Shown here one piece after another: positions 113 to 51,414 of a stretch of DNA of 51,414 nt. The position numbers and the translations under genes are program-made. Below the pieces are notes generated by a model. That model did not search any database. It worked only from the letters and a program-made list of their open reading frames with translations, and was not told where the DNA came from. The stretch's first letter is position 1, and every line of letters begins with the position of its first letter. The stretch is from a virus (lineage: Duplodnaviria; Caudoviricetes): positions 1 to 51,414 of the IMG/VR virus record IMGVR_UViG_3300008448_000127. One strand, written 5' to 3'.

Positions 113-260
113 GGCATCTGACCATATACCACAACGTATTGGGGTGTACCAGTCAGGGACCACAAGATATGGGATTCCTGTAATTGTGCTACGATTGGTA
201 CGCTGTTCGCTATATTGGTGGGGCAGGACAGTCGAACAACACTCAACAGGACAACGAACA

Positions 261-479
261 ATGACACAAAACAACAGCTACACTCGTGAATCGGTTCCTA
301 CGTTCAAACGTGAAGTATTCGATGGTTCGATCGAATATGTAAGTATTGACTACTTCCTACCCGCATGGGAGAACGTGGTGAACCATCCTACGTTCACTGG
401 AAAGAGTTATCCCGGACAGTCTCATAGTGTGAATCTGATGTATCGAAACGCTATGTTGTTGCTTTCTGCCGGATTCTAG
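261..479 (+). CDS. Hypothetical protein (72 aa)
   Basis: ATG at 261 after CAGGA. The leader TCAACAGGACAACGAACAATG nearly matches the leader of the gene at 4846. Confidence 0.55.
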   Translation: MTQNNSYTRESVPTFKREVFDGSIEYVSIDYFLPAWENVVNHPTFTGKSYPGQSHSVNLMYRNAMLLLSAGF

Positions 480-536
480 TGCATCCCCCCTCGATTCAAG
501 GTTTTTTGTTTTAACACTTTCTGAGGAGAAACAAAG

Positions 537-2417
537 ATGGAAGAGAACGAAGTGTGGTCGAGTGAACCAGCAGACATGGAAGAGGCTATCCTGAATGCTG
601 ATGGAAGAGTGTTTAAGGATAGGTCTAGTAAGATCGTTGATGACATACAGACGTATCACCCTGACGCATCGTGCACAGCAAGATTCCCAGCGTACTCAAC
701 TCATACGGGGTGGTATTATAAGACAAACGGTTTTTTGTATGACCATCAAGAAAGCCCGCACGATCTGGTTTCCGTCAAAATTGAAGCCAGGAAACCAGAG
801 CAGGAAGTCCCTGTTGAGTCTAGTGATAATCCTGATTTTTTACGGTTGTTGTCCTTTGCCAAAGACGAACAATCCGCCGAACTGATTCGGAAAGAGTATG
901 CGAGCTATCGACTACTCGAAACGCTGCACCTCAAGGCCCTGGGATTCACTGGCAAACGCAAAGCAGTAACATGGGAAGCGGCCAGTAAGTTAAAAACATT
1001 GTTGAACCTGGACGCTATGTGTGATTCTGTCCCCTGGGTTATTTCTGAAGGGGAAGACATACACGAAGTATTCGAGGAACACCGTCCTGGTAGCTGCATG
1101 CGAGATGGTTCAAAACACGAATTACGCCAATTGTACGCTTTGAATCCTGACAAGGTGAAGACTGCCCACCATGTTAAAGGGTCGCACGGCTTGCTTCAGT
1201 CCGCTATTTCATGCCTAGTATGGTACGGGAAAGATAAAGTGTATATTGACCGTCGATACACTGACGGTTATCTCCCGATGGTGAAGGAACCGTTAATACG
1301 ATCGCTGGCGAGACAATTGAAGGCTCAAACAGGTAAGGACGTGTTGCTAGTCTGGAAAGGTGACGATATCCCAGGGATTGACACCATCAGCAATGAAGTC
1401 AAATTCACGCTCAACAGGGATTCCGACTTGATGCCCTGGTGTGATTCTATTCGGTACGTGGTGGAATACGATGACGATACGGTTACGCTGTCAACGTCCG
1501 AGAAACGTGGTCGCATATGCTGTCAGGACCAATCTGGTACGGATATTACGGAAAGCCCTTGCAAGTGTTGTTCGTGCGCACGTTCGATTGACGAAGACAA
1601 TTCTAGAACCGACGAATCGGGCAGTGTATATTGCGACGATTGTTACTCTGAAGCCTATTCATACTGCAATTGGTACGAGGAAGACTATTCTGCCGACGAT
1701 GTTTCTGAGGTGAGAATCTATTCTTATGGTTCGGCGTATCAGCATAGACGTGTAACATCTATTCCGGGGTCTAGACATCGTGTGGCAACATGGCATACAA
1801 TACACATTAGTGAATCTGCGTTGTCCGATCATTTCACAGAACTCCAGGACGGGACATATTGCCACAATGATTTAGTTATTGAAGACAATCGTGGTAACTA
1901 TTATGCTCCTGACGATGAGGGGAACTACGTCGTGACAGAAGACGGGGAAACGTACCACCCGGACGACGTTTGTCAGACTGTTGACGATGAAATCCATCCG
2001 ATAGAGAATTGCCAGGAATTGCATGACGGCACATGGTGCCTCTCTGAGCATGCTGTAGAGATTGATGGGAAATGGTATTATGATGACGATCGTTCAGAAC
2101 CTGAACAGTCTTCAGAAGCATCTGATGATGATACTGAGGAACCACAACAGGAAGAACAACAACTGACGGACGGTGGATACGTGGTTCCGGACGGCTATCG
2201 TTTGGCTATTCCTGGTGAGATACTTCCTATAGGTTCCCGCTACTTGTTCGGTTACGGGTATAGTGCACAATGGGATTTAACTGTAGAAGCTGGAAAACCA
2301 TACGGTGAGACATCGTGGCGGCTTCAATTACCTTATATCATTCGGAATGATAGTGCGTCGGTCCCTACTGTAGCATCATTACCCGCCAACAAACTAGAAT
2401 CGAGCGTATCACGATGA
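537..2417 (+). CDS. Large multidomain phage protein: SCM...DRRY...PWCD core, double CxxC zinc ribbon, acidic beta-hairpin-like repeats
   Basis: 626-aa ORF with GAGGAG RBS. Motifs GSCMR, YIDRRY, MPWCDS, CCSC...YCDDC. Confidence 0.85.
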   Translation: MEENEVWSSEPADMEEAILNADGRVFKDRSSKIVDDIQTYHPDASCTARFPAYSTHTGWYYKTNGFLYDHQESPHDLVSVKIEARKPEQEVPVESSDNPDFLRLLSFAKDEQSAELIRKEYASYRLLETLHLKALGFTGKRKAVTWEAASKLKTLLNLDAMCDSVPWVISEGEDIHEVFEEHRPGSCMRDGSKHELRQLYALNPDKVKTAHHVKGSHGLLQSAISCLVWYGKDKVYIDRRYTDGYLPMVKEPLIRSLARQLKAQTGKDVLLVWKGDDIPGIDTISNEVKFTLNRDSDLMPWCDSIRYVVEYDDDTVTLSTSEKRGRICCQDQSGTDITESPCKCCSCARSIDEDNSRTDESGSVYCDDCYSEAYSYCNWYEEDYSADDVSEVRIYSYGSAYQHRRVTSIPGSRHRVATWHTIHISESALSDHFTELQDGTYCHNDLVIEDNRGNYYAPDDEGNYVVTEDGETYHPDDVCQTVDDEIHPIENCQELHDGTWCLSEHAVEIDGKWYYDDDRSEPEQSSEASDDDTEEPQQEEQQLTDGGYVVPDGYRLAIPGEILPIGSRYLFGYGYSAQWDLTVEAGKPYGETSWRLQLPYIIRNDSASVPTVASLPANKLESSVSR

Positions 2418-3361
2418 ATATCATAACACTGGAACAGTACACACACTTTTTGTGTCTGTTGTCTACTGACGACGTTTTCAACCACCTGGAAACAATAGGT
2501 TTTACAGTTCGCCATGCTACCAGCAAAACAAAACGCTATGCCGTTAAACAGGGTAGCAACAAAAACCGTCCGTTGTTGGTCGCACATGCTGATACAGTCC
2601 TGGAATCCAGGGCATACGAATACGATCCCAACACGGGTATTGTCGTATCGTCGGAGTTAGACGATCGTTTAGGTATCGCCATTATGCTGTGCCTGTTACT
2701 TGATGGTATCGACGTATCGTGCCTGATATGTGACAACGAAGAGACTGGCCGAACTACAGCAACACAGTTTATTCGTGAGACTGAATTGACTCCCGTTTGG
2801 TTGACCGAATTCGATCGTCGGGGAATAGACGTTGTTTGCTACGAATATGAAACTCCAATTTTGTGTTCCTTGCTGAAACATTGTGGTTTTACAATTGGTC
2901 AAGGTTCTTTCTCTGACATCAGTAGTATGGAAAGCCTAGGGGTTATTGGTTTTAATGTGGGTGTAGCATACCACAAAGAGCACAGCTTGAAATGCCATGC
3001 TAACCTAAACCAGACGTTAAGCCAGGTTGAACGCTGGTTGTTGTGGTTCGGTTGGTTGTCTAGTGTTCGTCTCGCCCACGAAGAAAAAACGTGGGGCAGG
3101 GCATCGTACGGAAAGTATTACGGATTGTCTACTCGTCTGGACAGCTATATCGTCGATGACTTCCGGGATAGATACGAAAGTAAGATTCTGGATAACCCCA
3201 GGGTAGATGATGCCTGGGACGATGACTTGTTCGATTCTGTAACCGGACTGGAATTGTGCGACCAATGTGGAAACTATTGCGATAGTGAAACAATGTGCGA
3301 CTATTCCGGCGGGACTGTTTGCGAGAACTGTATTGTTGACTTGAAGGGGATGAAATCATGA
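2414..3361 (+). CDS. Zn-dependent M28/M20-like peptidase with C-terminal zinc ribbon
   Basis: Metal-ligand motifs AHADT, LDDRLG, NEETG, EFDRRG, GSFSD, YHKEH. ATGA overlap with the upstream gene. Confidence 0.8.
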   Translation: MNIITLEQYTHFLCLLSTDDVFNHLETIGFTVRHATSKTKRYAVKQGSNKNRPLLVAHADTVLESRAYEYDPNTGIVVSSELDDRLGIAIMLCLLLDGIDVSCLICDNEETGRTTATQFIRETELTPVWLTEFDRRGIDVVCYEYETPILCSLLKHCGFTIGQGSFSDISSMESLGVIGFNVGVAYHKEHSLKCHANLNQTLSQVERWLLWFGWLSSVRLAHEEKTWGRASYGKYYGLSTRLDSYIVDDFRDRYESKILDNPRVDDAWDDDLFDSVTGLELCDQCGNYCDSETMCDYSGGTVCENCIVDLKGMKS

Positions 3362-3609
3362 CGATCATTCAGAATCAATATTGTGCCTCATACGGTCCTG
3401 ACGATACTCTACTGGCTAGTGTTGATGATATCCGGCAGTACGCTGGAAAGTCGGCATTGTCGGCTGTTGACACCCTGGACATTATTTTTGCAAGGAATAC
3501 GATATGGAAACCAAACAGGATTGGAAGCGAATTCACAGCGAGCATTATGCTAAGGGACCAACAACCGAAGAACGAATCGGTATCTTCCTGCTGTTCTTCG
3601 TGCCGATAG
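3358..3609 (+). CDS. Hypothetical protein
   Basis: ATGA-coupled to the peptidase gene; 83 aa. Confidence 0.6.
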   Translation: MTIIQNQYCASYGPDDTLLASVDDIRQYAGKSALSAVDTLDIIFARNTIWKPNRIGSEFTASIMLRDQQPKNESVSSCCSSCR

Positions 3610-3657
3610 TATGGTTGTCGTGCATTGCTTTTGAGTTGTTTGCATAGGGGGATTGTG

Positions 3658-3837
3658 ATGGAATCGGGATACTATTGGGCAAAGTGGAACCATGCCCGCA
3701 TGACGGAAATACTGGTTGTTTTTGTCTCCAGCAATGGTGATTGCTTTGTGTCAGGATCGGATCTACCCTACGATCAGGATTCATTTATTTTTCTTTCCGA
3801 CGAGATACAACCACCATGCAATACGTTGATTGGTTAG
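3658..3837 (+). CDS. Hypothetical protein (MESGYYWAKW...)
   Basis: ATG at 3658 after AGGGGG. The GYYW start is typical of small phage proteins. Confidence 0.6.
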   Translation: MESGYYWAKWNHARMTEILVVFVSSNGDCFVSGSDLPYDQDSFIFLSDEIQPPCNTLIG

Positions 3838-3897
3838 TGCGAATACGTTTATAGCAGGACTTCTCTTGTACCTGATTCTGGAATGAATCCTAGCTTT

Positions 3898-3930
3898 AAC
3901 CCGGACAACGTTTGTTGTCCGGGTTTCTTT
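3898..3930 (+). terminator. Intrinsic terminator
   Basis: Perfect 12-bp stem AACCCGGACAAC/GTTGTCCGGGTT with a 4-nt loop, followed by TCTTT. Confidence 0.8.
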
Positions 3931-4000
3931 ACGTCCTGGTGTTTGTCAATGTGGTCCTGATCTCTAATCGTGGGGATCGTCTGGGGCACACTGGCAAGCT

Positions 4001-4520
4001 CCAGGACGTTGTTCCGTTTGCTGTTCGGCCAATGTGTCGGACTGCTGACGGCATAACGTCCTGGTTGATTCTGGGGACAATAGAGCGAATTACTACGTAT
4101 ATCGTTTGAACAGTATCGGCTAGGGTACATGGGATATACGTCAACAATGACGTACGTCAACGGGAACGTACGTTTTGACTACGTACATCGTATGTACACT
4201 GAACAAAAGTGATCCTAGTCCAGGATCACATAGGACAGCGTATACGGGCCTCAAATTCTGGACGATACAATGGCCGGACAATAGGACGATAGGCTCGTGT
4301 AGACGATCCTGGAACGTTGTGGATCGTATTGTTGGCGTTTGGATATGCTGGTACGTCGTTTGCGATACGGAAACGCAATATATAGTGGGTGAAGGATAAC
4401 GGAACCACAATAGGTTGTGGTTTCAATGGGAACACTGACGGGACGATCCTATCGGTATCGTGTTCAGGATCGTTTTACGTACCGAACGAACAGTAGTGAA
4501 CAAACTATGAGCATAGTTGG
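4001..4520 (+). ncRNA. Candidate structured non-coding region (tandem hairpin array)
   Basis: About ten consecutive inverted repeats, with G-T pairs favouring the plus strand and no credible ORF. Confidence 0.4.
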
Positions 4521-4777
4521 TAGTTTAGGTAGGATGACGTTGAATAGTGGGATTGTGACGATTAGGTAAAATGGGTAAACATGTAACTTTCTGGGGAAAG
4601 AAATGGTATGTGTGGTAGGTGGCAGGAACAATGTAAGGCTGATCGAGTGGAGTCAGCAGGTAAGGATGTAACTTTCCATCCCAGAAATACAAAGTGGAAT
4701 TGTGGCTGGTTGGAGGGGGATGGGTGTAGAGGTTTTTTGAAGAAAGAATGGGCAGTACAATTCTGACACAATTACAG

Positions 4778-4805
4778 TTGACTCAGTGGCTGTAATCGCT
4801 AGACT
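4778..4805 (+). promoter_or_regulatory. Sigma70-type promoter TTGACT-N16-TAGACT, overlapped by inverted repeat ATTACAG...CTGTAAT
   Basis: -35 at 4778-4783 and -10 at 4800-4805. Palindrome arms at 4771-4777 and 4790-4796. Confidence 0.7.
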
Positions 4806-4845
4806 CCCCACATGAGATTTTTTAGGACTTCAACAGGACACGACA

Positions 4846-5097
4846 ATGCCGGTTACCTTTATGTGGATTGTGGCTGCTGACTACCTGACAACAGGAAAGA
4901 AGTATGAGAGTAACGTGCAGTTGTATCGAGACGCTGAAGGTTTACATCTGAAGGTTATCTGGTGTGCCAACAGTGCGTACACTGGGCGTGTTCTGAAGAA
5001 GAAGCATAATCGTACTGTGTGTGATGGTATGTTTGAACGTGTGATTGCTCAGTTGGAGAAAGCAGAATGCAGATTGAAGTTGGTAAAAGGTACGTAA
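4846..5097 (+). CDS. Hypothetical protein
   Basis: First ORF after the promoter, with CAGGA RBS. Confidence 0.65.
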   Translation: MPVTFMWIVAADYLTTGKKYESNVQLYRDAEGLHLKVIWCANSAYTGRVLKKKHNRTVCDGMFERVIAQLEKAECRLKLVKGT

Positions 5098-5612
5098 GGC
5101 GAGACGGGACAGTGAGTGGTGTAATACGAGCTCTCGACTCGGTAGATTATCCATTTCTGGACAAGGAACTTCTAGCTACTTATACCGCAGAAGGTATACG
5201 AGGCTTAAGGCCGGATCATTGGAGTGATTTGGTAGCAGAGTATGTAGAACCAGTATCCCCTTCAGAAGTTTCTGGAAAGGAAAGTACAGTGGAGTATGAT
5301 CTGAGTGGTATCCCAGCAGGGTATACCTTTGTGGGTTATCGACTTGTCAAAGTTGGTGACCAGTATGTGGGTAACGTGGGAGGGACTAAAGTTTTTGTTG
5401 CGACTAAGAGTGATGCTACAATGAAGAAGTTACGCCTCGTCGTTAAACCGATCGAAACTAAGCAGCGAACGGTGGTGATTCACAAGTGGCTGGTGTGGGA
5501 TCTTCTGGGTAAGGAAAGAATGGTGTTCGGTACCGAGAAGTATATTGGTGACTGTGGATTTTCTGATGCTGTGGATCTTGGTTTCTATGAGGAAGTGAAG
5601 GTGAATGTATGA
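5067..5612 (+). CDS. Hypothetical modular protein (GKRYVRRDG...DLVAEY domain plus YRL module)
   Basis: 181 aa with GGAG RBS. Shares modules with the 537..2417 and 49386..49940 products. Confidence 0.8.
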   Translation: MQIEVGKRYVRRDGTVSGVIRALDSVDYPFLDKELLATYTAEGIRGLRPDHWSDLVAEYVEPVSPSEVSGKESTVEYDLSGIPAGYTFVGYRLVKVGDQYVGNVGGTKVFVATKSDATMKKLRLVVKPIETKQRTVVIHKWLVWDLLGKERMVFGTEKYIGDCGFSDAVDLGFYEEVKVNV

Positions 5613-5902
5613 GACGGCACCCTACGTTCAGATATATGGTTGTGGTCGATGATCACTGGTATACCAACGCTGGGTGGGTGAACGCTGCTGATTACAATTC
5701 GCCCAACATAAGACATTGGTCTACGTACCAAAGGGTACCGACGTTCAAGAAAGCCTTGAAGGTTGTAGTCAAGTTGTGTGATGCTGGTCTTCCAGCCAGA
5801 TTGGAAGTCGATAAGAAGATGTGGGCACGTAAAAGTGCTCGACGTAAACAGTGGTGTGGGTATAAGACCTTGACTCTTATTTCGGAGGTTACTGCTCAAT
5901 GA
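5609..5902 (+). CDS. Hypothetical basic protein
   Basis: ATGA overlaps at both ends. Confidence 0.7.
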   Translation: MRRHPTFRYMVVVDDHWYTNAGWVNAADYNSPNIRHWSTYQRVPTFKKALKVVVKLCDAGLPARLEVDKKMWARKSARRKQWCGYKTLTLISEVTAQ

Positions 5903-6480
5903 CGAATCGATTACCAAAACAAGAACCAGAGATTGTTGATGTCCAGTCTTTCATGGAACACCATCTGGCTGACTTTATTAAGGAAAGGATTAAGGAAGGG
6001 CATAGTAAAGCTGAGGCTATTAAATGGGCTGCTGATAGGTTTCAGAAAGGTGCTAAGTATAATCTTCAGTCAGTGCGTTCACCGTTTCTGAAGAGAGATA
6101 CAGAAACAGGGATGATTACTTACTTCTGCTACGAAGAAGGGCAGGTGTACCAAGTTGCAGATGCTGATACCGTCACATTAGCGTTGATTGATATCGAGAA
6201 GGCATTCGATTGGGACGGTGCAGCACTCGATGCTCTTAATGATAAAGTCATGGAACTCCAGAAGTGCAGCATCATTATGATTTGGAGAATGTATACCGGA
6301 ATGCACTCGGTGGTTGATGGTGGCATCCAGATGATCAGTTATGTTGGTGGTGAAGAGACCGACACTGATGGTTCATCAGCAATGATGGAAGGTAGTCAGA
6401 CTGGTACGTTAATGGTGAGTGCGATGAACATTCTTGTTCAGCATGATATTTTGGAGTTGGTTGGAGAAGCAGGAAGATAG
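5899..6480 (+). CDS. Hypothetical protein
   Basis: 193 aa, GGAGG RBS, coupled to the upstream gene. Confidence 0.8.
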   Translation: MTNRLPKQEPEIVDVQSFMEHHLADFIKERIKEGHSKAEAIKWAADRFQKGAKYNLQSVRSPFLKRDTETGMITYFCYEEGQVYQVADADTVTLALIDIEKAFDWDGAALDALNDKVMELQKCSIIMIWRMYTGMHSVVDGGIQMISYVGGEETDTDGSSAMMEGSQTGTLMVSAMNILVQHDILELVGEAGR

Positions 6481-6489
6481 GAGAGTGTT

Positions 6490-6717
6490 ATGCCTTGTGT
6501 AGTGACGAAAGAGGAAGAGGAGTGGTACGAGCGAGAAGGTAACAAGAAGGAGTATGGTGTTGCTGATCTGGATGACAGGATCACAACGACTGTCGCCTGT
6601 GAGCTTGCTAAGATTCTGGAGAAACATGGACTGTTAAATGAGTGCAGTGCCGTGGCTAATAAGTGGATTAAGAAGCACAAGAAGGAGGATCGAGAGAGGA
6701 CTAAACGGACATTATGA
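6490..6717 (+). CDS. Hypothetical protein
   Basis: AGGAG RBS; ends just before a terminator. Confidence 0.75.
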   Translation: MPCVVTKEEEEWYEREGNKKEYGVADLDDRITTTVACELAKILEKHGLLNECSAVANKWIKKHKKEDRERTKRTL

Positions 6718-6721
6718 AACG

Positions 6722-6762
6722 AAGAAACCCCGGTCAGGTTGTCCTGCCGGGGTCTTTTTATT
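6722..6762. terminator. Bidirectional intrinsic terminator between convergent operons
   Basis: A-rich flank, stem ACCCCGG(T)CAGG/CCTGCCGGGGT, then CTTTTTATT. Confidence 0.8.
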
Positions 6763-6770
6763 GGTGGAGG

Positions 6771-7166
6771 TTACCAGTCACTTGGGCGTGGCGAACTGCC
6801 TATCGGTGTTTCTGGGGATGAAAAGTGGTAGCGATTCCAGAGCCACTTGATGACAGGGATAGTGAAGTTCTTGAAGAAGAACCAGGCCAACCATCCATAG
6901 CCCATCTTGAAACGAACGTCATTGATTGCGTCGTCAAGAGTTGCTGGTTGTTTATCTTCATCGTTGACGATCTCAATGAAGGCTTCAGCAATTTTCATCG
7001 CTCGTTCAGCGTTACGCTTATCGTGAATATGCCACTGTTTACGTTCAGTACGTTTACCATCACGAGTGGTAGAAGCCAGCACAATCTCTTCAGCGTATCC
7101 AAACTCGGTAAGCAGGTCTCTGGTTAAAGCAACTTGTTCGTTCAGTGTAAGGGGGTCGAATCTCAT
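6771..7166 (-). CDS. Hypothetical protein with C-terminal hydrophobic/aromatic segment
   Basis: 131 aa with AGGA RBS; segment GYGWLAWFFF...VIKWLW. Confidence 0.75.
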   Translation of the reverse strand: MRFDPLTLNEQVALTRDLLTEFGYAEEIVLASTTRDGKRTERKQWHIHDKRNAERAMKIAEAFIEIVNDEDKQPATLDDAINDVRFKMGYGWLAWFFFKNFTIPVIKWLWNRYHFSSPETPIGSSPRPSDW

Positions 7167-13052: not shown

Positions 13053-13285
13053 TAGATCATTCCTATGACTAAGCCGCATACGGCACAACGTCTGATATCC
13101 CATGCGTATGCTGGCGTGTCGTAAACTAGTAACTCTACCTGTTGATGGTTACAAGGTTTGCTCATGAACTCTGTTATTTCTTCGGGTGAGGCTTCACGGA
13201 TGTTTGCTGCTCCGCAGTTCCCATCAATTCTTCTAGGTTCATTTGCCGTTTCTATGAAGTACTTCGGTGTGCTAGCTACAGACAT
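13052..13285 (-). CDS. Small Cys-containing hypothetical protein
   Basis: Fills the gap between PolA and primase; CNH...CAVCG. Confidence 0.6.
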   Translation of the reverse strand: MSVASTPKYFIETANEPRRIDGNCGAANIREASPEEITEFMSKPCNHQQVELLVYDTPAYAWDIRRCAVCGLVIGMI

Positions 13286-15261
13286 ATCTTTGTTTCCTTA
13301 TCCCAGCGGTGAGTGATTAAGTTTGCTTCAACAGGGGCATGAATGCCGTATTCGCTTGCCGCCTGTTCCATAAGTGATACGAGGTTACGCACATGCTTCT
13401 TCGGCACACGAACAGGTACTTCGAAATCGACCTCGTCGTGAACTTGGAGTGCAATTCGCCCTTCAGGATATTCTGAGAGAAGATAGTCGTCGCATAGACG
13501 CATGGCACGTTTGACGATGACTCCTTCAGCACCCTGGACAATGTAGTTTACTCCAGCATGTGCCGCTTTCTCAATACGACCTGTCCACTTATTGACATGT
13601 TCTTTGAGTTCCAGTGGGTAGTCACCAAGTGTAAGTACGTATCCCTGTTCGTTGATTAGTTCCTTTGTTTGCTCGATGAAGGCGTGAGCATTAGGGAAGA
13701 GAGTCGTAACAGTGTCCCAGAGACCAGCGATTCCTGCCGTAGCTTCGATCTTCTTAGGAGACGCTCCGAAGACGAACCCGAAATTGACATTCTTCGCAAC
13801 ACGACGCTGGGCCTTTGTTGGTGACTGGCTGTCGGGTACATTGAATATCTTTCTGGCAACGAAGTCATGGGCGTCCCATCCTCTGTTGAAGGCATCCATC
13901 ATTTCCTGTTCATTGGTGACGTTAGCAAAGATACGTAGTTGTAGCTGGGAGTAATCCATTGTTAACCACCACTTGCCAGGAGGTGGTCCGAAGACTGATC
14001 GCATTGACGGTGAAGCCTGCAGCCACTTAGCAATGTCAGGTGCATCGTCTTCGTATGGGTTACCAGCCTTCGTGATATTCTGGGCGTTAGGATTGTTGCT
14101 GCTGAAGCGTGTGGTCTTGGTGCCCACGATGTTGAACGAAGGGTGGATGAAGCCTGATGAACTTCTGGCATGGTAGTACGACTGAAGAGAAGTTAGTTTC
14201 TTCTCATACTTCTTCTTGCTTAGATACGCTCCCAGGAATCGGTGTACAGGACTTCCCGGTTCTGCATCTTCATGCAGTGCGAGGATGGTTTTGGCATCGA
14301 CTGACGGACTTCCTGTTTTGGCTGACTTGGTGATGGGTTCGAGTTTAAGTTTACCGAAGAGGTATTCTCGGAGATTGTGGTCAGTAATGTGATCAATGCC
14401 TGAAAGTTTGCTAGTTTCGGCAGTGAGCAGTTGTATGAATCGTTCACAAGCATCAATTGACTCCTTCAGTTCAGGGATGTTGACCCACAGACCAATAGTT
14501 TCCATCTTCCAGGTAATGTGCTCTACCTGTTTGTTGATCTCCAGTAGTTCCGTAGTCTGTTCACCGTGACGAGATAGTAGTTCGTGGAAATACATTTCAG
14601 CCAGTTCAAACGTATTGACACAGTCCGCTTTAAGATAGCGAAGCATGACGTTCTTGAGGACTGAGTCCGGGAGTTTAGGTCTTCTGGGTTGCGGAATAAG
14701 TGCGAGTACTGCGTCAGGGAGCCAAAAGTCAGATCGGTTCCATTTGCTGGACGATCCGTACATCTTAAATGTTGGGTGATTTCCGTCACGTCTTGCAATG
14801 TCCCACCTGCTGCAGATATCCTGGAGTGCCTTGGTCTCGACGAGTCTTCGGCATTTATTAACGGCATTGATCAGTTCCTTATCTTCCGGGTAACCTTTAC
14901 CTAAGTATTTCTGAGTGAGAACATCAAGTGAAAGTTCGTCAGTGCTACAGTGGAGGTGGGCAAGGATAGTGGTGTCTACGATCCTTTTCCAGAACGAGGC
15001 TTCTGTTGGTTCTTGCCAGTCGTAGATTCCGGCTTCGCAGAGTGCTCTAAGGTCGAAGTGGGCGTTGTGGAAGGAGATGATGTCTGCGTTGTCAAAAGCG
15101 TTTCTAAGAGACTTCGGATGCTCTTTAGTTCTTCGACGAGTGACTGGATCAATTCCAACTGTTGACGATTTGAATGTGGTTCCATCGTAGATTCCAATAC
15201 TGAAGGTGGTGCAGCCATTTCTAAGCCAAAGACCCGTCGTCTCCGTATCTGCTGCAATCAT
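13276..15261 (-). CDS. polA: DNA polymerase family A with 3'-5' exonuclease
   Basis: ExoI DTETTG, ExoII HNAHFD, ExoIII YLKAD, TTRFSSNNPNAQNI, motif A DYSQLQLR, motif B RRVAKNVNFG, motif C VHDE. Confidence 0.95.
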   Translation of the reverse strand: MIAADTETTGLWLRNGCTTFSIGIYDGTTFKSSTVGIDPVTRRRTKEHPKSLRNAFDNADIISFHNAHFDLRALCEAGIYDWQEPTEASFWKRIVDTTILAHLHCSTDELSLDVLTQKYLGKGYPEDKELINAVNKCRRLVETKALQDICSRWDIARRDGNHPTFKMYGSSSKWNRSDFWLPDAVLALIPQPRRPKLPDSVLKNVMLRYLKADCVNTFELAEMYFHELLSRHGEQTTELLEINKQVEHITWKMETIGLWVNIPELKESIDACERFIQLLTAETSKLSGIDHITDHNLREYLFGKLKLEPITKSAKTGSPSVDAKTILALHEDAEPGSPVHRFLGAYLSKKKYEKKLTSLQSYYHARSSSGFIHPSFNIVGTKTTRFSSNNPNAQNITKAGNPYEDDAPDIAKWLQASPSMRSVFGPPPGKWWLTMDYSQLQLRIFANVTNEQEMMDAFNRGWDAHDFVARKIFNVPDSQSPTKAQRRVAKNVNFGFVFGASPKKIEATAGIAGLWDTVTTLFPNAHAFIEQTKELINEQGYVLTLGDYPLELKEHVNKWTGRIEKAAHAGVNYIVQGAEGVIVKRAMRLCDDYLLSEYPEGRIALQVHDEVDFEVPVRVPKKHVRNLVSLMEQAASEYGIHAPVEANLITHRWDKETKICL

Positions 15262-15317
15262 TTTACGTGCTTCCAAATTAGGCGTCTGTGTTTATTGTAA
15301 GGCACGGTAATACTCCG

Positions 15318-45981: not shown

Positions 45982-46658
45982 AGCGGCATCCTTTCGATGT
46001 AGGCTGTTTGCGAATCGATCACTACTCCACAGGAAATGATCGGTTTAGCGGAGAACTTTGTTCCATACTCCAACTGCATGTGCTTACGGTCTATGCCGGT
46101 GCCGACCTGCATACCGAAGATAATGTTCGCTTCGTTAGCGTGGTACCATAGCCCGCCCTGAGAGTGGTGGTGTCCTTGCACTACAGAGCAAAACTCAGCT
46201 TGAGCATTCTTCAGTGCGGCTTGTTGTCCACCTTTGCCTTGGTCGCCATGCTGGTACAGCACACCATCGAGCACAAGTTTGTGGTATCTCGGATAGACTT
46301 GCCAACCTCGTGGTAACTCGAACAGGTCTTTGAAGTCGCGCAGTAATCGCTGTGGTAACCCAGCGGTTGTGGCTTGGCGTTGGGCAAGACTGTCGTGGTT
46401 GCCCAGGAGTAGATGAGCCTTAGGGAATCTGTCTGTGAGTAATCGAATCTGCTCAATTGCCTCGTCAATTTCTGAGGAAGAACATGATTCAGGTGATTTC
46501 TCGTGATAACTGATGCAGTGGTTATCGACCAAGTCACCGATGTGAATAACACGTTTGCAGTTGTACTTGTCTGCTATTTTTACCAAGAAGTCAGGATACT
46601 CAGGTAGCATTGCTGGTGCATGACAGTCTCCGATGATGAGAGTAACAGTACTTCTCAT
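45978..46658 (-). CDS. Calcineurin-like metallophosphoesterase
   Basis: Motifs GDCH, GDLVD, GNHD, QHG, GHHH. Confidence 0.9.
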   Translation of the reverse strand: MRSTVTLIIGDCHAPAMLPEYPDFLVKIADKYNCKRVIHIGDLVDNHCISYHEKSPESCSSSEIDEAIEQIRLLTDRFPKAHLLLGNHDSLAQRQATTAGLPQRLLRDFKDLFELPRGWQVYPRYHKLVLDGVLYQHGDQGKGGQQAALKNAQAEFCSVVQGHHHSQGGLWYHANEANIIFGMQVGTGIDRKHMQLEYGTKFSAKPIISCGVVIDSQTAYIERMPL

Positions 46659-46740
46659 GATTACCTCAAGGGGATGAAGTAATGTTTGGTACAAGTGGTA
46701 ACACTTGTGACTGTTGCATAACCCCTCTATCCCCACGAGC

Positions 46741-46952
46741 AATAAAAACAAGCCTTTACTGGCTTGTCTTGTTTTGATGCTGGTGAGTTGGGCTACACAA
46801 CGTCGTTGTGACTGTTGGCATGTTACCTCGCATCATGTTGCTTTACATCGTTGATGCGACAAGTCATTGCTCTTGCCTCTTCCGATGGTGCACGGCTTTT
46901 CTATACCGTGGGGATCACTAGTAGCCGTTCAAGCACGGCAAACACGCTGTGT
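46741..46952 (-). ncRNA. Candidate ~210-nt structured small RNA or leader ending in an intrinsic terminator
   Basis: Upstream promoter, four hairpins, then ACAAGCC/GGCTTGT plus TTTTATT; no ORF of 60 aa or more. Confidence 0.5.
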
Positions 46953-46958
46953 GGCTGA

Positions 46959-46987
46959 ATCATGGTCGAACGGTCAGGTTCTGTCAA
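46959..46987 (-). promoter_or_regulatory. Sigma70-type promoter TTGACA-N17-CATGAT
   Basis: Located in the divergent intergenic region. Confidence 0.6.
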
Positions 46988-47150
46988 TGGATTCTCTGGA
47001 TATTTGCTGTAATCGCACAGATTGGCCCGTAAACGCATAGTTTTGCTCAGGATGACCTTAGACTCATCTTGCCGCGTGGAGGCTCTCTACGGGCCTGTAA
47101 TGCGTTTGTGCTGTACAGAATGGTGTACAAAGAATCTTGATACAGTTCTG

Positions 47151-47178
47151 TTGACATGTGCCACAGATTGGTTACAGT
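47151..47178 (+). promoter_or_regulatory. Sigma70-type promoter TTGACA-N16-TACAGT
   Basis: About 40 nt upstream of the first gene of the thyX operon. Confidence 0.65.
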
Positions 47179-47215
47179 GCTGGTGGTTTTACTTCAAATG
47201 TTTCTGGAGAAAGAG

Positions 47216-47563
47216 ATGACAGAAGATAGTAAGGTACCAATCAAGCTACACGTTAATGGTCAGTTTGTTGGGTACATCGAAAAGTTGGAGTATGAACGGC
47301 CAGTGCAGGAATTGCCGTCTGTGGACGGTTATGCCCGGTTTGCTCCTGGTAATGAGATCAGGCTAAGTGTTGAACTTACTACGCCAGTAAGTTTGCAGGA
47401 AAAGTGGAGGTTGGTGGAAAAGGGTGAGGAAGTACGGGACACAGACGAGTGGTATAGTGTAGTAGAAATGCAATGGTATCCGCTGTCTATGTTCTATCCA
47501 AACATTGATTGTAAACTGGCTGATGACGATCTTTACCGTAGAAAGGTTCTGGTGTGTGTATGA
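47216..47563 (+). CDS. Hypothetical protein with C-terminal WRL..GE...DEW module
   Basis: GGAG RBS and ATG at 47216. Confidence 0.75.
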   Translation: MTEDSKVPIKLHVNGQFVGYIEKLEYERPVQELPSVDGYARFAPGNEIRLSVELTTPVSLQEKWRLVEKGEEVRDTDEWYSVVEMQWYPLSMFYPNIDCKLADDDLYRRKVLVCV

Positions 47564-48396
47564 CGTTTAACGCAAAGATACTGGCAGACAGTACCAACAC
47601 GCTTGGTAACCGTTTGCTCACAATGGAAATGACTTATCCTCGGTTTGTTCATGCAGAGCATCTGAGGCATAGGATGTTTTCGTTCAACGTAGCATCCAGT
47701 AGGGCTATCCCTGTGGAGAAGATGATTGAGCAGGTAGAGAAGAATCCTGTCATTCCGATTCATTGGGGCAAGGCTCAGCGGGGGATGCAGGCTTACGAGC
47801 AGTTTACTGGTGTTGATGCGAATGAGTGTGTAGATCGATGGTTAACCGCCAGAGACTATGCTCTCGGTGCAGCAGAAGGGATGCTCGATCAAGGTCTGCA
47901 CAAACAGATCATCAATCGCATTCTGGAACCGTGGATGTGGTGTACCGTCATCTGTACCGGCAACATTGGTGCTTGGAATAACTTCTGGGCACTAAGGTGT
48001 CATCCAGAAGCTGAACCGCATATCAGGAAGATTGCGGAAATGACTGAAGGCATTGCTCGAAACAACGTCAGTCATCAACTTGCTGAAGGTGAATGGCATC
48101 TGCCATTGATTGGGTTTGACGGTGACGGTGAACTCAGCTTTGAGGACGCTGTGAAGGTGTCTGCTGGTCGTTGTGCTCGGGTTAGCTACTTAACGCACGA
48201 CGGCCAGAGAGATGTTCAGGCTGATATTGCTTTGCATGATCGATTGATTGCATCAAAGCATTTTAGTCCTACTGAGCACCAGGCACAGAATGTGAGCAAC
48301 TTGGCTTATGGTGCATGGGCTAATGGTAGTCTTGGTGATGGGTGGATGCAGTACAGAAAGACTCTGAAAGGAGAGTATCAGAATGAAAGTAGGTGA
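47560..48396 (+). CDS. thyX: FAD-dependent thymidylate synthase
   Basis: Motifs RHRMFSFNVASSR (RHRx7S), HKQ..NR, LR.HPEA.P.I, H.SP.EH. Confidence 0.92.
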   Translation: MTFNAKILADSTNTLGNRLLTMEMTYPRFVHAEHLRHRMFSFNVASSRAIPVEKMIEQVEKNPVIPIHWGKAQRGMQAYEQFTGVDANECVDRWLTARDYALGAAEGMLDQGLHKQIINRILEPWMWCTVICTGNIGAWNNFWALRCHPEAEPHIRKIAEMTEGIARNNVSHQLAEGEWHLPLIGFDGDGELSFEDAVKVSAGRCARVSYLTHDGQRDVQADIALHDRLIASKHFSPTEHQAQNVSNLAYGAWANGSLGDGWMQYRKTLKGEYQNESR

Positions 48397-49015
48397 TGGG
48401 TATAGACAATTGATGCGAAGTGACATAATTAGCGAAGGTGATGAGTGGTATGACTCTTTCGGTATATGGCACCCTGTAAGTGGAAGTACGATAGGTCAGG
48501 GGTATTGGACCTATGCAGGACGCTGCATAAGACGTAAAACGGAAAATAAAGTTGAGACTTCTCCTGCACCAGAACATACTAAGGAATCCAATCCGAAGGA
48601 TGCCATCGGTAGTACCAAGCCTCCAATTGCCAATGTTCCTCTCTCAGTACTTTCTGAGGTAGGAATGGCACTGGCTGAAGGTCAGTACAAGTATGGAGGG
48701 TACAACTGGCGTGTGATCGGGGTAAGGGCATCAGTCTATTGGGATGCCACATTCCGTCATATCAAGGCTTGGTGGGAAGGTGAGGACGTTGATCCAGACA
48801 GCAAGCTGAGCCATATCACAAAGGCTATCAGTGCTCTGATGGTTTTACGTGATGCTATGATTCAGGATAACTGGACTGATGATCGTCCTCCCAGAAGTAA
48901 GCAGAAGCCTGAAGAGGTTGCTGCGATGTACAAAGAAATGTTGGAACGGTTGAAAAGTCTTCAGCCTGATCCGGTACCGGGATATACTCAGAAAGGAATT
49001 GAAGATGTCAAGTGA
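48383..49015 (+). CDS. DUF5664 (dATP/dGTP diphosphohydrolase-type) domain protein with N-terminal YR...DEW module
   Basis: Pattern NPKDAIG..K.P...VP...G..KYG.YNWR...RH...W..GED.DPDS.LSH. Confidence 0.85.
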   Translation: MKVGDGYRQLMRSDIISEGDEWYDSFGIWHPVSGSTIGQGYWTYAGRCIRRKTENKVETSPAPEHTKESNPKDAIGSTKPPIANVPLSVLSEVGMALAEGQYKYGGYNWRVIGVRASVYWDATFRHIKAWWEGEDVDPDSKLSHITKAISALMVLRDAMIQDNWTDDRPPRSKQKPEEVAAMYKEMLERLKSLQPDPVPGYTQKGIEDVK

Positions 49016-49202
49016 TGAAGGTGCATCGTTTTTACTAGGTGCTGCTTTAATGGGCGTGCTAGTGCTGGTAGTTTGTTCAATCGTACACAAAGGTAGTATG
49101 AACGCTTGGGAGAAGCAGTGCATCGAGTATGGAGCAGCACAGTACAGCCCAACAACAGGTGAATTTGAATGGAAAGAGAAGGTTGAAGATGGCTCGAAAT
49201 GA
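49005..49202 (+). CDS. Small single-TM membrane protein
   Basis: Segment FLLGAALMGVLVLVVCSIV. Confidence 0.7.
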   Translation: MSSDEGASFLLGAALMGVLVLVVCSIVHKGSMNAWEKQCIEYGAAQYSPTTGEFEWKEKVEDGSK

Positions 49203-49389
49203 TGGAGACACAGCAGTGTATGGTGTCAGTGCCCTGAAGACTTTCTGGGCAAAAGCAGATGAAGTAGCTGACGAAATGGGTTTGTCTCGATCAGCAGCCA
49301 TTGTGGATGCCTGTATGAAGCAATGGAAGACAAAGGGTTTAGGGTCAAAAGGTCCAGGTCGTCCTAAGAAGAAAGTGGTGAAGAAATGA
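49189..49389 (+). CDS. Ribbon-helix-helix-like DNA-binding protein with basic GRPKK tail
   Basis: Pattern VYGVS...ADEVADEMGLSRSAAI. Confidence 0.7.
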   Translation: MARNDGDTAVYGVSALKTFWAKADEVADEMGLSRSAAIVDACMKQWKTKGLGSKGPGRPKKKVVKK

Positions 49390-49940
49390 CACAGTACAGA
49401 TTGTTGGATAACACCGTTGATATTATTGAAGCGACTGATGAGTTTTGGGATACTGCAGTACGTAAATGGAAAGTGGTACCGCACCATTTTGTTGGCGAAA
49501 GGTTCTACGCGGTTATCCCGTATCGACGGGCTATTCCTGACCCAGAAAATATTGAGCAAGAATCTGCTGTAGCCCCAGGTGAAGACTGGAGGCTGGTCAA
49601 AGATGATGAGATTGTTCTACCTACCGATGAAAGGAGGTTTGTGAACAACCCCAGGGGGAACTGGTCGTTAGTTACTCCAGGTACTACCTTGCGATCGTTC
49701 ATTGAAGGCGAGTCTGTTACGTACGCACAGATTAAAGAACGGCCTGTATGGAGGTCTGTTGTATTCAGGCGACGTGCTACGAAGAAGATTGTACTCAAGG
49801 AATACCTTGAACGGTACGGTGAGCATTACAGGACTGAATGGCATAATGGGAATGTAGAGAACTGCAAAGGTGCAGGGTTCATTATGCCTGATGAGTCGTG
49901 GCCAACAGGTCAGGAAAGAGAGATTGAGATTACTGCCTAG
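49386..49940 (+). CDS. Hypothetical protein with two tandem YRL/WRL...DE modules
   Basis: Internal repeat is visible in the translation. Confidence 0.8.
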   Translation: MTQYRLLDNTVDIIEATDEFWDTAVRKWKVVPHHFVGERFYAVIPYRRAIPDPENIEQESAVAPGEDWRLVKDDEIVLPTDERRFVNNPRGNWSLVTPGTTLRSFIEGESVTYAQIKERPVWRSVVFRRRATKKIVLKEYLERYGEHYRTEWHNGNVENCKGAGFIMPDESWPTGQEREIEITA

Positions 49941-49950
49941 TTCAAGGCAT

Positions 49951-49996
49951 AAATAAACCCCGCTCAGACTTATTATCTGGCGGGGTCTTTTTGTTT
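49951..49996. terminator. Bidirectional intrinsic terminator
   Basis: Stem ACCCCGC(T)CAGA/TCTGGCGGGGT followed by CTTTTTGTTT; same design as the terminator at 6722. Confidence 0.8.
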
Positions 49997-50252
49997 AGTC
50001 AACCTTGTCAACTGTTCCAGTGTAGTATCGGTGTCCTCCTGGTTGGCACATGAAACCTGCTGAGTCCTTTGCCATGAGTGTACGGCACTTGACTCGTGAA
50101 CCATAGACCTGTTGATGGTAGCAGTGGTTTTGGTAAGCATCCCAGACCATAGCATGTATCTCCTTGTGTATTTCTGGGATGACATTGGTACGGAAGTCGA
50201 TTGATTCTTGAAGTATACGTTGGGCACGTTCCACTGGTGTTTCCTCTATCAT
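49995..50252 (-). CDS. Hypothetical protein
   Basis: AGGA RBS; ends at the terminator. Confidence 0.6.
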   Translation of the reverse strand: MIEETPVERAQRILQESIDFRTNVIPEIHKEIHAMVWDAYQNHCYHQQVYGSRVKCRTLMAKDSAGFMCQPGGHRYYTGTVDKVD

Positions 50253-50780: not shown

Positions 50781-51275
50781 CTACCTAAAATAGGTAATAC
50801 CTTTAATTTCATTTGTTTTAGCGTCAAGTACTTCAAGAGAAACTGCTTCAGGATTCGCCAAATAGTGTATGTCTTTCGGACTCATACCGATCTTCTCCAG
50901 AAGTTTGATCAGCATTGGTTGTTGTTTGGACAGGATGCTGAACCAGGCAGATGGAGCAGAGCCGAGGTAGTTACCTTCATCATCGTATCTGTGTACTACT
51001 TCTCCTTCCTCAGAAAGTTTACGACGGCATTTGTCCAGCAGGACAACGACTTCAACAAGTTCTGAGATGAGAAGTGTGTAAGTGCTAGAGAGGCAGTTGC
51101 GGTTTTCCATGTCAGCGACAATGAAATCCCAGAGTTGCTTCTTTACAGGGTCCGATGCGATACGTTCAGGTAATGTCATGTTCTGGGCAGTACATAGCTC
51201 AGTGCCCGGATCTGGTAAAGGGATACCTGAGAAGTAGTACAGTTCTGTAGCGGACTTACGTTTGGGGCGTGCCAT
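50781..51275 (-). CDS. terS: Terminase small subunit (P27 family-like)
   Basis: Pattern MARPKRK...LW...EEG.V...P.A.......LLEKIGMSP; AGGAG RBS. Confidence 0.8.
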   Translation of the reverse strand: MARPKRKSATELYYFSGIPLPDPGTELCTAQNMTLPERIASDPVKKQLWDFIVADMENRNCLSSTYTLLISELVEVVVLLDKCRRKLSEEGEVVHRYDDEGNYLGSAPSAWFSILSKQQPMLIKLLEKIGMSPKDIHYLANPEAVSLEVLDAKTNEIKGITYFR

Positions 51276-51414
51276 GATATCTCCTATGAAATGGTAGCAG
51301 GATTGTCCCAAGTGAGCACGAATGGTAATGGAATGAGAGGATCTGTCAATGGTATGTTTGCATTGTAGCACAATAATCATTAAACTCGTGGTAAGATTAG
51401 AATTTACGTGAAGG

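Follow-up and report, generated by a model that had tools for sequence, protein, structure and literature searches.

In the early region of coliphage T7, single RNase III processing hairpins of approximately 50-60 nucleotides (nt) lie between early genes, while the put RNA of phage HK022 is approximately 70 nt long and consists of two stem-loops with almost no spacer, located upstream of the terminators that are overridden. The injection stop signal of phage T5 is a large non-coding block, rich in repeats and palindromes and carrying DnaA boxes, that lies approximately 8% from the genome end. Large non-coding RNAs that are conserved are seldom seen in phages or bacteria, and every such discovery to date has led to new biology. 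This study describes a gene-free block at positions 3838-4845 of an uncultivated freshwater tailed phage (Duplodnaviria; Caudoviricetes), IMG/VR virus record IMGVR_UViG_3300008448_000127, which was analyzed as a whole (51,414 bases, linear, estimated to be 98% complete; hereafter the window, to which coordinates refer unless stated otherwise). The block is non-coding and conserved among related phages, its 5' part is predicted to fold on the plus strand, and it may be a locus for a structured non-coding RNA that acts as RNA and belongs to a family not in Rfam, which is the best reading and one that we consider about equally likely to be right or wrong.

The locus shares with the T7 hairpins the presence of long imperfect sense-strand hairpins that are kept among relatives between early cistrons, but here two abutting helices (H1 and H2; Table 1) lie behind a terminator-like hairpin (T) and are followed by approximately 800 nt of non-coding sequence. 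The two nearly abutting stem-loops in an early transcript also recall HK022 put, whereas H1 and H2 together span approximately 130 nt and lie downstream of T. Like the T5 signal, the element is a large non-coding block with repeats and palindromes that may lie roughly 8% from an end; unlike that signal, it has no DnaA boxes, and its pairing is strand-asymmetric and compensatory. No T5-named family was seen in the partial annotation of the phage, and T5 homology was not searched. With GOLLD and ROOL (PMC12286853), the likeness lies in a candidate RNA of at least 0.5 kb with many helices that is phage-associated and known from environmental sequence; the present element differs in matching no Rfam model (GOLLD and ROOL included, if they are in release 15), in having firm covariation over approximately 220 nt only, in lacking nearby tRNA genes (ARAGORN found no tRNA or tmRNA in the phage) and in its narrow distribution (10 sequences). 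PMC7157519 describes non-coding-RNA origins in extrachromosomal cluster A mycobacteriophage prophages, and these, together with ColE1 RNA II, resemble the element in being a block of several hundred non-coding nucleotides that would act via a folded transcript, with a structured 5' part, a G-rich downstream part and a family-A polymerase available; the present element differs in being on a phage rather than a plasmid or prophage and in having no Rfam or sequence similarity to them. In addition, a structured-RNA screen of IMG/VR viral contigs lists 10,006 candidates (PMC10690425) that share with the element the data source and the type of support, namely covariation within intergenic regions of viruses. 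Full-text literature searches brought up no published description of such an element, and an earlier prediction of it may be contained in the lists of PMC10690425.

A first-pass annotation, made from the letters of the DNA, had described positions 3898-4520 as a tandem hairpin array free of open reading frames (ORFs) and as the largest non-coding block of the genome. A gene-free stretch is present at that position, but the real block is wider (approximately 1 kb), extending from the stop of a small ORF (3837) to the next ATG (4846) and using 2% of the length of a compact genome. Judged by eye from the ORF table, it is the largest such block, and the next gap measures 404 nt (46752-47155). Strictly, the block is not free of ORFs, since reading frames of up to 103 amino acids on the minus strand and 74 amino acids on the plus strand occur inside it, mainly on the G-poor minus strand, but the element lacks coding periodicity. 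Ten of these ORFs were searched and no credible family was found (best E value 0.17 in Pfam and 0.045 in PHROGs). For the three parts of the element, each of the 15 pairwise tests showed mismatches between relatives spread evenly over positions modulo 3 (p 0.12-0.96), while in the upstream peptidase-like gene substitutions were concentrated at one codon position in five of five tests (p 1e-19 to 4e-30), and the 5' part of the element has indels of 1, 2 and 4 nt. A 104-amino-acid ORF common to L049 and L054 has 12, 13 and 13 mismatches by codon position. A small-peptide ORF in the 3' part of the relatives (MW..FLDQ.QEVLAG) was rejected, since L058, L030 and L052 carry it truncated or with a shifted frame, the window lacks it and it has no codon bias. 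The block 3838-4845 does not code for protein.

The element was found at the same place in nine related contigs, five of them full or nearly full length (L030, L052, L058, L049 and L054) and four cut by contig ends (L048, L069, L051 and L063). These relatives were recovered from IMG/VR (L030) and from Joint Genome Institute metagenomes with a profile of the upstream peptidase-like protein, and the element was located in them by blastn and a covariance model, R1. In each relative the order is a large protein, the peptidase-like gene, small ORFs, a gap of approximately 0.85-1 kb and the next rightward operon. Identity between the flanking proteins of the window and those of its relatives is only 29-46%, while 3871-4059 and 4214-4271 are the best nucleotide matches across the left 7.2 kb, the strongest of all being 3871-4059 (97.8 bits, 74% identity over 193 nt). 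At the nucleotide level, the first approximately 220 nt of the element are conserved above every neighboring early gene. The known distribution is narrow. R1 detected one copy per genome: across 67 sources (359,371 bases) there was neither an additional member nor a second copy, and the ends of the long related contigs G001-G003 gave no match. A degenerate motif brought up no new copy when scanned against IMG/VR and against 185,579 species, each represented by a single genome, the INPHARED phage records contained no nucleotide match, and searches with each of two flanking proteins yielded no IMG/VR locus. Nine IMG/VR loci beyond the L030 contig contained the exact motif, and the window block matched none of them by blastn; the L030 block matched only one, L037, over 22 nt at a chance-level E value of 0.007. 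Among sequencing runs, related sequence was listed for two freshwater DNA runs, in small shares, and for no RNA run, a result that does not bear on expression. In one of the DNA runs, a relative termed X1, approximately 90% identical to the window, is represented by short low-depth contigs.

Compensatory change is concentrated in the 5' part (window 3858-4080), for which RNAalifold was applied to nine sequences and 60 pairs were tested. Eighteen of these 60 pairs were changed on both sides, compared to 9.0 +/- 2.2 across 500 shuffles, where a count as high was never obtained, and when the partners were slid by 1-3 columns pairing fell to 37.5-47.7% of cells with 2-8 pairs double-changed. The predicted helices are Ha (a small hairpin absent from the window), Hb, T, H1 and H2. 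Hb has six of seven pairs double-changed across the nine sequences, with 80.6% of cells paired even as MAFFT partly misaligns it, and its stem takes the forms GATTC/GAATC, GACTG/CAGTC, GATGG/CCATC and GATCAG/CTGATC. In T, which begins 60 nt past the stop of the last upstream ORF, 11 pairs are 96% paired with four double-changed, and the AACCCGG/CCGGGTT base and T-rich tail are present in nine of nine sequences. H1 has 30-nt arms matching at 77%, and its 22 pairs are 94-98% paired with four double-changed and one U-G pair invariant in nine of nine. In H2, 17 pairs are 89-96% paired, with three double-changed and 12 changed on one side, mostly from G-U to G-C or A-U. Taken together, the comparative data indicate that the 5' approximately 220 nt hold four helices (Hb, T, H1 and H2) through compensatory change. 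An outer stem proposed in the first-pass annotation (4001-4010 with 4055-4064) proved specific to the window and is not a conserved pairing. A pairing of T with H2 and a ACGTCCTGG repeat were considered and are not conserved in the relatives; because these alternative pairings are not conserved, a riboswitch-like switch was dropped. Just upstream, the motif ACATAAC (mostly TGACATAAC) is invariant in nine of nine relatives before hairpin Ha, a few bases past the upstream stop (L030 3556-3566); it is partly promoter-like (TTGACA), with no good -10 at the right distance, and both the motif and Ha are missing from the window.

Table 1. Predicted features of the gene-free block and their positions in the window
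Feature	Position	Strand	Description
Hb	3874-3889	+	Small hairpin (GATTC, loop TGGAAT, GAATC) just 5' of T
T	3898-3930	+	Intrinsic-terminator-like hairpin; perfect 12-base-pair stem, 4-nt loop, then TTTCTTT
H1	3931-4009	+	Long imperfect helix with apical sub-hairpin; begins directly after the T tail
H2	4008-4058	+	Long G-U-rich helix abutting H1 (0-1 nt between)
Lineage-specific insert	4077-4200		ACGT-palindrome hairpins: TGACGTACGTCA at 4147-4158, AACGTACGTT at 4165-4174
Middle domain	4219-4227 with 4305-4313	+	9-base-pair long-range closing helix; 100% inverted repeat
P2	4389-4416	+	Candidate sigma-70-type promoter, inferred from alignments: GTGAAG, 16 nt, TAGGTT
Hairpin GAACCACAA/TTGTGGTTT	4402-4423	+	Over conserved block CACAATAGGTTGTGG; from the minimum-free-energy fold and the alignment of relatives
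Tail	4521-4732	+	G-rich, C-poor, little predicted structure, poorly conserved
T6 tract	4733-4738	+	Six T, then G; A/T-rich patch; TTTTTTG in six of six full-length sequences
Downstream-operon promoter	4778-4805	+	Sigma-70-like, TTGACT-16-TAGACT (9 of 12); first ATG at 4846

The strand on which this structure forms can be read from the mismatches, which had been described earlier as mostly G-T on the plus strand. This was confirmed in the conserved 5' part, where 118 of 534 cells are G-U and 12 are A-C, from which it follows that only the plus strand folds: pairing reaches 93.3% of cells on the plus strand, and the minus strand would give 73.4%. When folded alone, the plus-strand alignment gave -120.0 kcal/mol and 71 pairs, compared to -74.7 kcal/mol and 51 pairs, with H2 lost, for its reverse complement, and single sequences were more stable on the plus strand in nine of nine cases. 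The T-rich tail of hairpin T is likewise found on the plus strand only. These statistics indicate that the element works as a single strand of plus polarity, and since the plus strand is the sense strand of both flanking operons, RNA would be the simplest reading.

Predicted folding is also unusually strong for this genome. All eleven stems of the first-pass annotation were found, seven of them listed as inverted repeats (among the repeats found are 4001-4027/4038-4064, 4095-4103/4133-4141 and 3898-3909/3914-3925) and the others in the minimum-free-energy fold. Against 20 dinucleotide shuffles per strand, 3898-4520 folded at -250.8 kcal/mol on the plus strand (shuffles -191.9 +/- 5.4, z -10.95) and at -196.0 kcal/mol on the minus strand (shuffles -150.7 +/- 7.8, z -5.79). 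In a genome scan of 257 non-overlapping 200-nt windows, which is noisy because each was compared to 10 shuffles, 3801-4600 was the sole run of four consecutive windows at z <= -3 on the plus strand (-4.54, -4.25, -3.23 and -3.71), three of them ranking 4, 5 and 7 of 257. The homologous block of L030 folded with a z of -5.06.

The middle of the block combines lineage-specific and conserved sequence. The insert listed in Table 1 contains a 16-nt tandem repeat (TACGTCAAC...GACG) with two copies in the window (4137-4152 and 4153-4168) and three units in the X1 relative; the repeat is absent from the other clade, which has a different short hairpin instead. This repeat with its palindromes could be a protein-binding array. 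The tetramer ACGT is 4.4-fold denser in 3898-4700 than genome-wide and GATC 2.3-fold denser, and certain 7-mers are enriched as well (for example GGACGAT, with three of the six copies in the genome located in the block). The long-range helix of the middle domain encloses a conserved block, TTCTGGACGATACAAT (4256-4271), that is identical in L030, and a homologous closing helix, AGGAU/AUCCU, is found in six relatives, with one pair varying among U-A, U-G and C-G. Among the differences listed for the X1 relative, none falls in the long-range arms, while a change in the same relative (4212 A>C) falls in the rival local hairpin at 4209-4229 proposed earlier, which is not a conserved pairing. Within the middle 250 nt, stretches of 15-17 nt remain identical among the phages. 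The conserved block CACAATAGGTTGTGG occurs twice in the relatives, and the hairpin drawn over it lacks clear compensation, so its sequence may matter more than the stem.

Toward the 3' end, the CACAATAGGTTGTGG block together with a TTGACA-like hexamer 16 nt upstream could form a promoter, P2. The 16-nt spacing is kept in six of six full-length sequences, the -35-like hexamers being TTGACA, TTGACA, CTGATA, TTGAGG, TTGTGG and GTGAAG and the -10-like hexamers TATGTT, TACGTT and TAGGTT (four times); a promoter scan reported the L030 copy only (10 of 12) and none at the window position. The predicted promoter of the downstream operon has equivalents in L030 (TTGACT-17-TACATT) and in L049 and L058 (TTGCAA-16-TACAGT, read by eye). 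The stretch 4521-4845 has a GC skew of +0.40, the highest of any block measured. The T6 tract is a candidate terminator or UP-element; as a terminator it was tried and rejected, the upstream stems being weak and not conserved. The description of the locus as a tandem hairpin array is well supported for the 5' approximately 220 nt and partly so for the middle, but does not extend to the 3' third, which is unstructured and G-rich. In five of five genomes the GC skew steps at the element, from +0.095 to +0.105 in the plus-strand genes on the left, through +0.21 to +0.26 in the element, to +0.155 to +0.30 on the right, a step that could reflect a switch in the direction of replication or, equally, a unit with stronger transcription. 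Across the window, skew is +0.24 to +0.35 in the rightward segments 4081-7127 and 47156-49940, +0.10 in 144-3837 and +0.02 to +0.05 in the leftward genes.

Comparison with known families gave no match. Over all 51,414 bases, no Rfam 15 model matched at its gathering score, and when 3600-5000 was compared to Rfam at E <= 10 the eight rows obtained were all far below gathering scores and at chance level (the best, a microRNA model, had an E value of 0.059 and 24.6 bits compared to the 88 needed). The first-pass annotation had suggested an undescribed phage non-coding RNA, possibly a protein sponge, or else a structured replication origin or entry signal. The non-coding status, the conservation, the plus-strand fold and the lack of an Rfam match agree with the first of these proposals, while a sponge of the CsrB type is not supported, as GGA occurs 33 times (24.7 +/- 3.3 expected) and A.GGA four times (6.4 +/- 2.4 expected), with similar counts in five relatives.

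If the block is indeed a locus for a structured RNA, the upstream early operon would end at hairpin T, which looks like its intrinsic terminator: the sequence marks of such a terminator (a G+C-rich stem-loop, a U-rich tract directly after it and a position downstream of a same-strand operon) are all present at 3898-3930. A simple terminator scan omitted T because its tail rule needs five T in eight bases starting 0-2 bases past the counted stem. Host RNA polymerase would either read through T or initiate at a promoter yet to be mapped, which for the 3' part may be P2, and the product would be a G/U-rich, C-poor RNA that by composition should be a poor substrate for Rho. It is possible that this RNA acts via H1, H2 and the middle blocks that are conserved, with a protein as the most likely reader of these parts, and that it affects its own transcript or works in trans. 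Long imperfect duplexes of 25-30 base pairs are the form of RNA to which double-strand-RNA-binding proteins and RNase III-type enzymes bind. An RNA effector, if confirmed, would point to an RNA-based function in host takeover or anti-defense. A stronger version of this proposal, one autonomous early RNA of approximately 550-880 nt whose conserved helices and single-stranded blocks form a defined three-dimensional particle that acts in trans on a host machine, appears doubtful; an example of its role would be a decoy for an RNA-sensing defense or a ribonuclease, and if true it would add a further class to the large non-coding RNAs of phages, next to GOLLD and ROOL.

Several observations weigh against a structured-RNA locus. 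The 5' structure that was tested had been predicted on the same alignment, and the sample amounts to just 10 sequences from two clades, with a shuffle control that ignores relatedness. Consensus folds of the middle domain are weak (-5.75 kcal/mol in one, and two of 32 pairs double-changed in another), and in the low-depth X1 contig a G-U pair of the minimum-free-energy helix of the window (4243-4251/4291-4299) becomes A-C through one double change (4247 G>A and 4295 T>C). The 3' third has no consensus structure in the relatives, and the window and its relatives cannot be aligned there. With solid covariation in the 5' approximately 220 nt only, the locus could be a composite rather than a single large RNA. 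Single-stranded DNA of plus polarity would also yield identical pairing statistics. Moreover, no convincing promoter was found between T and H1, nor upstream of Hb in the window, and as the structured part lies directly behind T, an RNA covering H1 and H2 needs read-through, which is assumed.

There are several potential alternative explanations for the locus. It is conceivable, though on balance unlikely, that the block is an RNA-primed replication origin, in which transcription from within the block (at P2, for instance) would yield an RNA that forms a persistent RNA-DNA hybrid over the G-rich, C-poor tail and is extended by the phage's own DNA polymerase, in the manner of ColE1 RNA II or of the mycobacteriophage prophage origins. 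The folded 5' part would then shape or control the primer. The phage encodes both this family-A polymerase (PolA) and a primase-like protein; the strong skew of the 3' tail is followed by the conserved T6 tract and its A/T-rich patch; the skew step falls between co-oriented gene blocks at the element in each of the five genomes; and the 16-nt repeat, with its variation in copy number, and the perfect palindromes of the window lineage look like iterons. There is also precedent in phage origins that require a non-coding RNA, as reported in PMC7157519. However, the skew step can be explained otherwise, since the second plus-strand block of high skew (47156-49940, +0.24) likewise does no more than start a plus-strand operon, AT skew gives no support, and the iteron-like repeats are missing from the other clade. 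DnaA-box-like sites (TTWTNCACA, at most one mismatch) number 55 in the genome, with none in 3838-4846, P2 is weak in the window and was not reported there by the promoter scan, and the position of H1 and H2 directly behind a terminator is not explained by an origin itself. A folded primer RNA, if true, would represent a ColE1-style start of replication in a phage with its own replication genes. Under either the effector or the primer reading, the defined sequence and its covariance model (R1) permit searches of lake metatranscriptomes as well as in vitro work that needs no host. A similarly low likelihood is given to a composite cis-regulatory spacer between two early operons, made of terminator T, the read-through hairpins H1 and H2 and one or two promoters with an upstream A/T-rich element (P2 and the 4778-4805 promoter), in which H1 and H2 would serve as RNase III-type processing or stabilizing sites or as a put-like antitermination signal. 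This layout resembles the RNase III sites of T7 early mRNA and the put RNA of HK022. It would account for the full set of terminator marks in T, conserved in all nine sequences, for two long imperfect duplexes 0-1 nt apart, for a sigma-70-like promoter directly before the next gene in both the window and L030, and for a 3' third that is poorly conserved, as a spacer would be. Nevertheless, approximately 1 kb is a very large stretch for a compact genome to devote to such signals, the 15-17-nt blocks of the middle are unchanged despite the divergence of the neighboring proteins, and H1 and H2, being downstream of the only clear terminator, would be unable to suppress T.

A signal at the level of DNA, such as an entry pause, protein-binding palindromes, cruciforms or a packaging site, acting as double-stranded DNA or as hairpins of plus-strand single-stranded DNA, is considered very unlikely. 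The T5 DNA-entry pause lies at a similar distance from the genome end, and if the ends of the record are true the block lies 7.5-9.4% from the left end; the density of GATC, ACGT and GGACGAT in the block and the perfect palindromes at 4147-4174 would also fit, and pairing statistics do not distinguish RNA from single-stranded DNA. On the other side, the helices switch to different base pairs, beyond what is needed to keep a consensus half-site, and because approximately one fifth of paired cells are G-U on the plus strand and A-C on the other, a symmetric double-strand signal or a cruciform is unlikely; the block also lacks DnaA-box-like sites, and the terminase genes are elsewhere. Finally, it is extremely improbable that the block has no function, whether as the decaying remains of an element or as inverted repeats clustered by chance. 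The poor conservation of the 3' third and the restriction of some of the listed hairpins to the window could be taken in this way, but the element is conserved above its coding neighbors with compensatory changes, its folding z is far beyond shuffles, and its position is syntenic in 10 sequences.

The remaining observations concern the phage itself. Proteins matched in the record include a large terminase, a portal and a major head protein, and the replication-type proteins are PolA (13276-15276), a primase-like protein (Toprim with a DnaG zinc ribbon), an AAA_24 ATPase and a PD-(D/E)XK nuclease; thymidylate-synthase-like, MazG-like and HNH endonuclease matches were also found, and a small-terminase match was weak. 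The terminase is approximately 33% identical to those of the nearest named phages, and approximately 27 IMG/VR contigs have terminases at 74-81% identity. Genes in 144-7127 are oriented rightward, with the element inside this block, and most of the remaining genes leftward. The product of 2414-3361 has a peptidase-like PHROG match, and no function was obtained for the other neighboring proteins from Pfam, PHROGs, a PDB sequence search or the ESM Atlas. No integrase or partition genes were seen in the partial annotation.

The right end of the record is shared with related phages. Window 51150-51414 and the segments L078 (1-270) and L080 (1-270), which belong to two independent related contigs (G001 and G002), stop at the same homologous base, the final letters being ..CGTGAAGG, ..CGTAAAGG and ..CGTCACGG in the three contigs, and the terminus adjoins a small-terminase-like gene and an HNH endonuclease gene. 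This suggests a real, fixed genome terminus (cos-type or defined ends), in which case the rightward early block would sit at the left end; as the right end is common to three contigs, the ends are possibly real and the packaged DNA possibly has the early block as its left end. No clear coincidence was seen between the left ends of the record and of L030. G001 and G002 (the contigs of L012 and L024) are 85-87% complete, running from the shared right terminus to approximately 6000-6400 in window coordinates and lacking the entire left early block (approximately 6 kb), element included. G003 terminates within the peptidase-like gene, and several short metagenome contigs terminate within the element.

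Other sites also stand out at the borders of gene blocks. At the junction of the rightward early block with the leftward genes, window 6825-6907 contains a stretch of 43-60 nt that is 85-86% identical to L058 and L030, in surroundings that cannot be aligned. At two further boundaries, 49801-50000 (z -5.3 and -5.1) and 46601-46800 (z -3.7 and -5.5), both strands fold beyond shuffles, and these sites are probably two-way terminators. In the second high-skew block, a thymidylate-synthase-like gene and a MazG-like pyrophosphohydrolase gene are adjacent (47554-49015) and form a possible nucleotide-pool or base-modification module.

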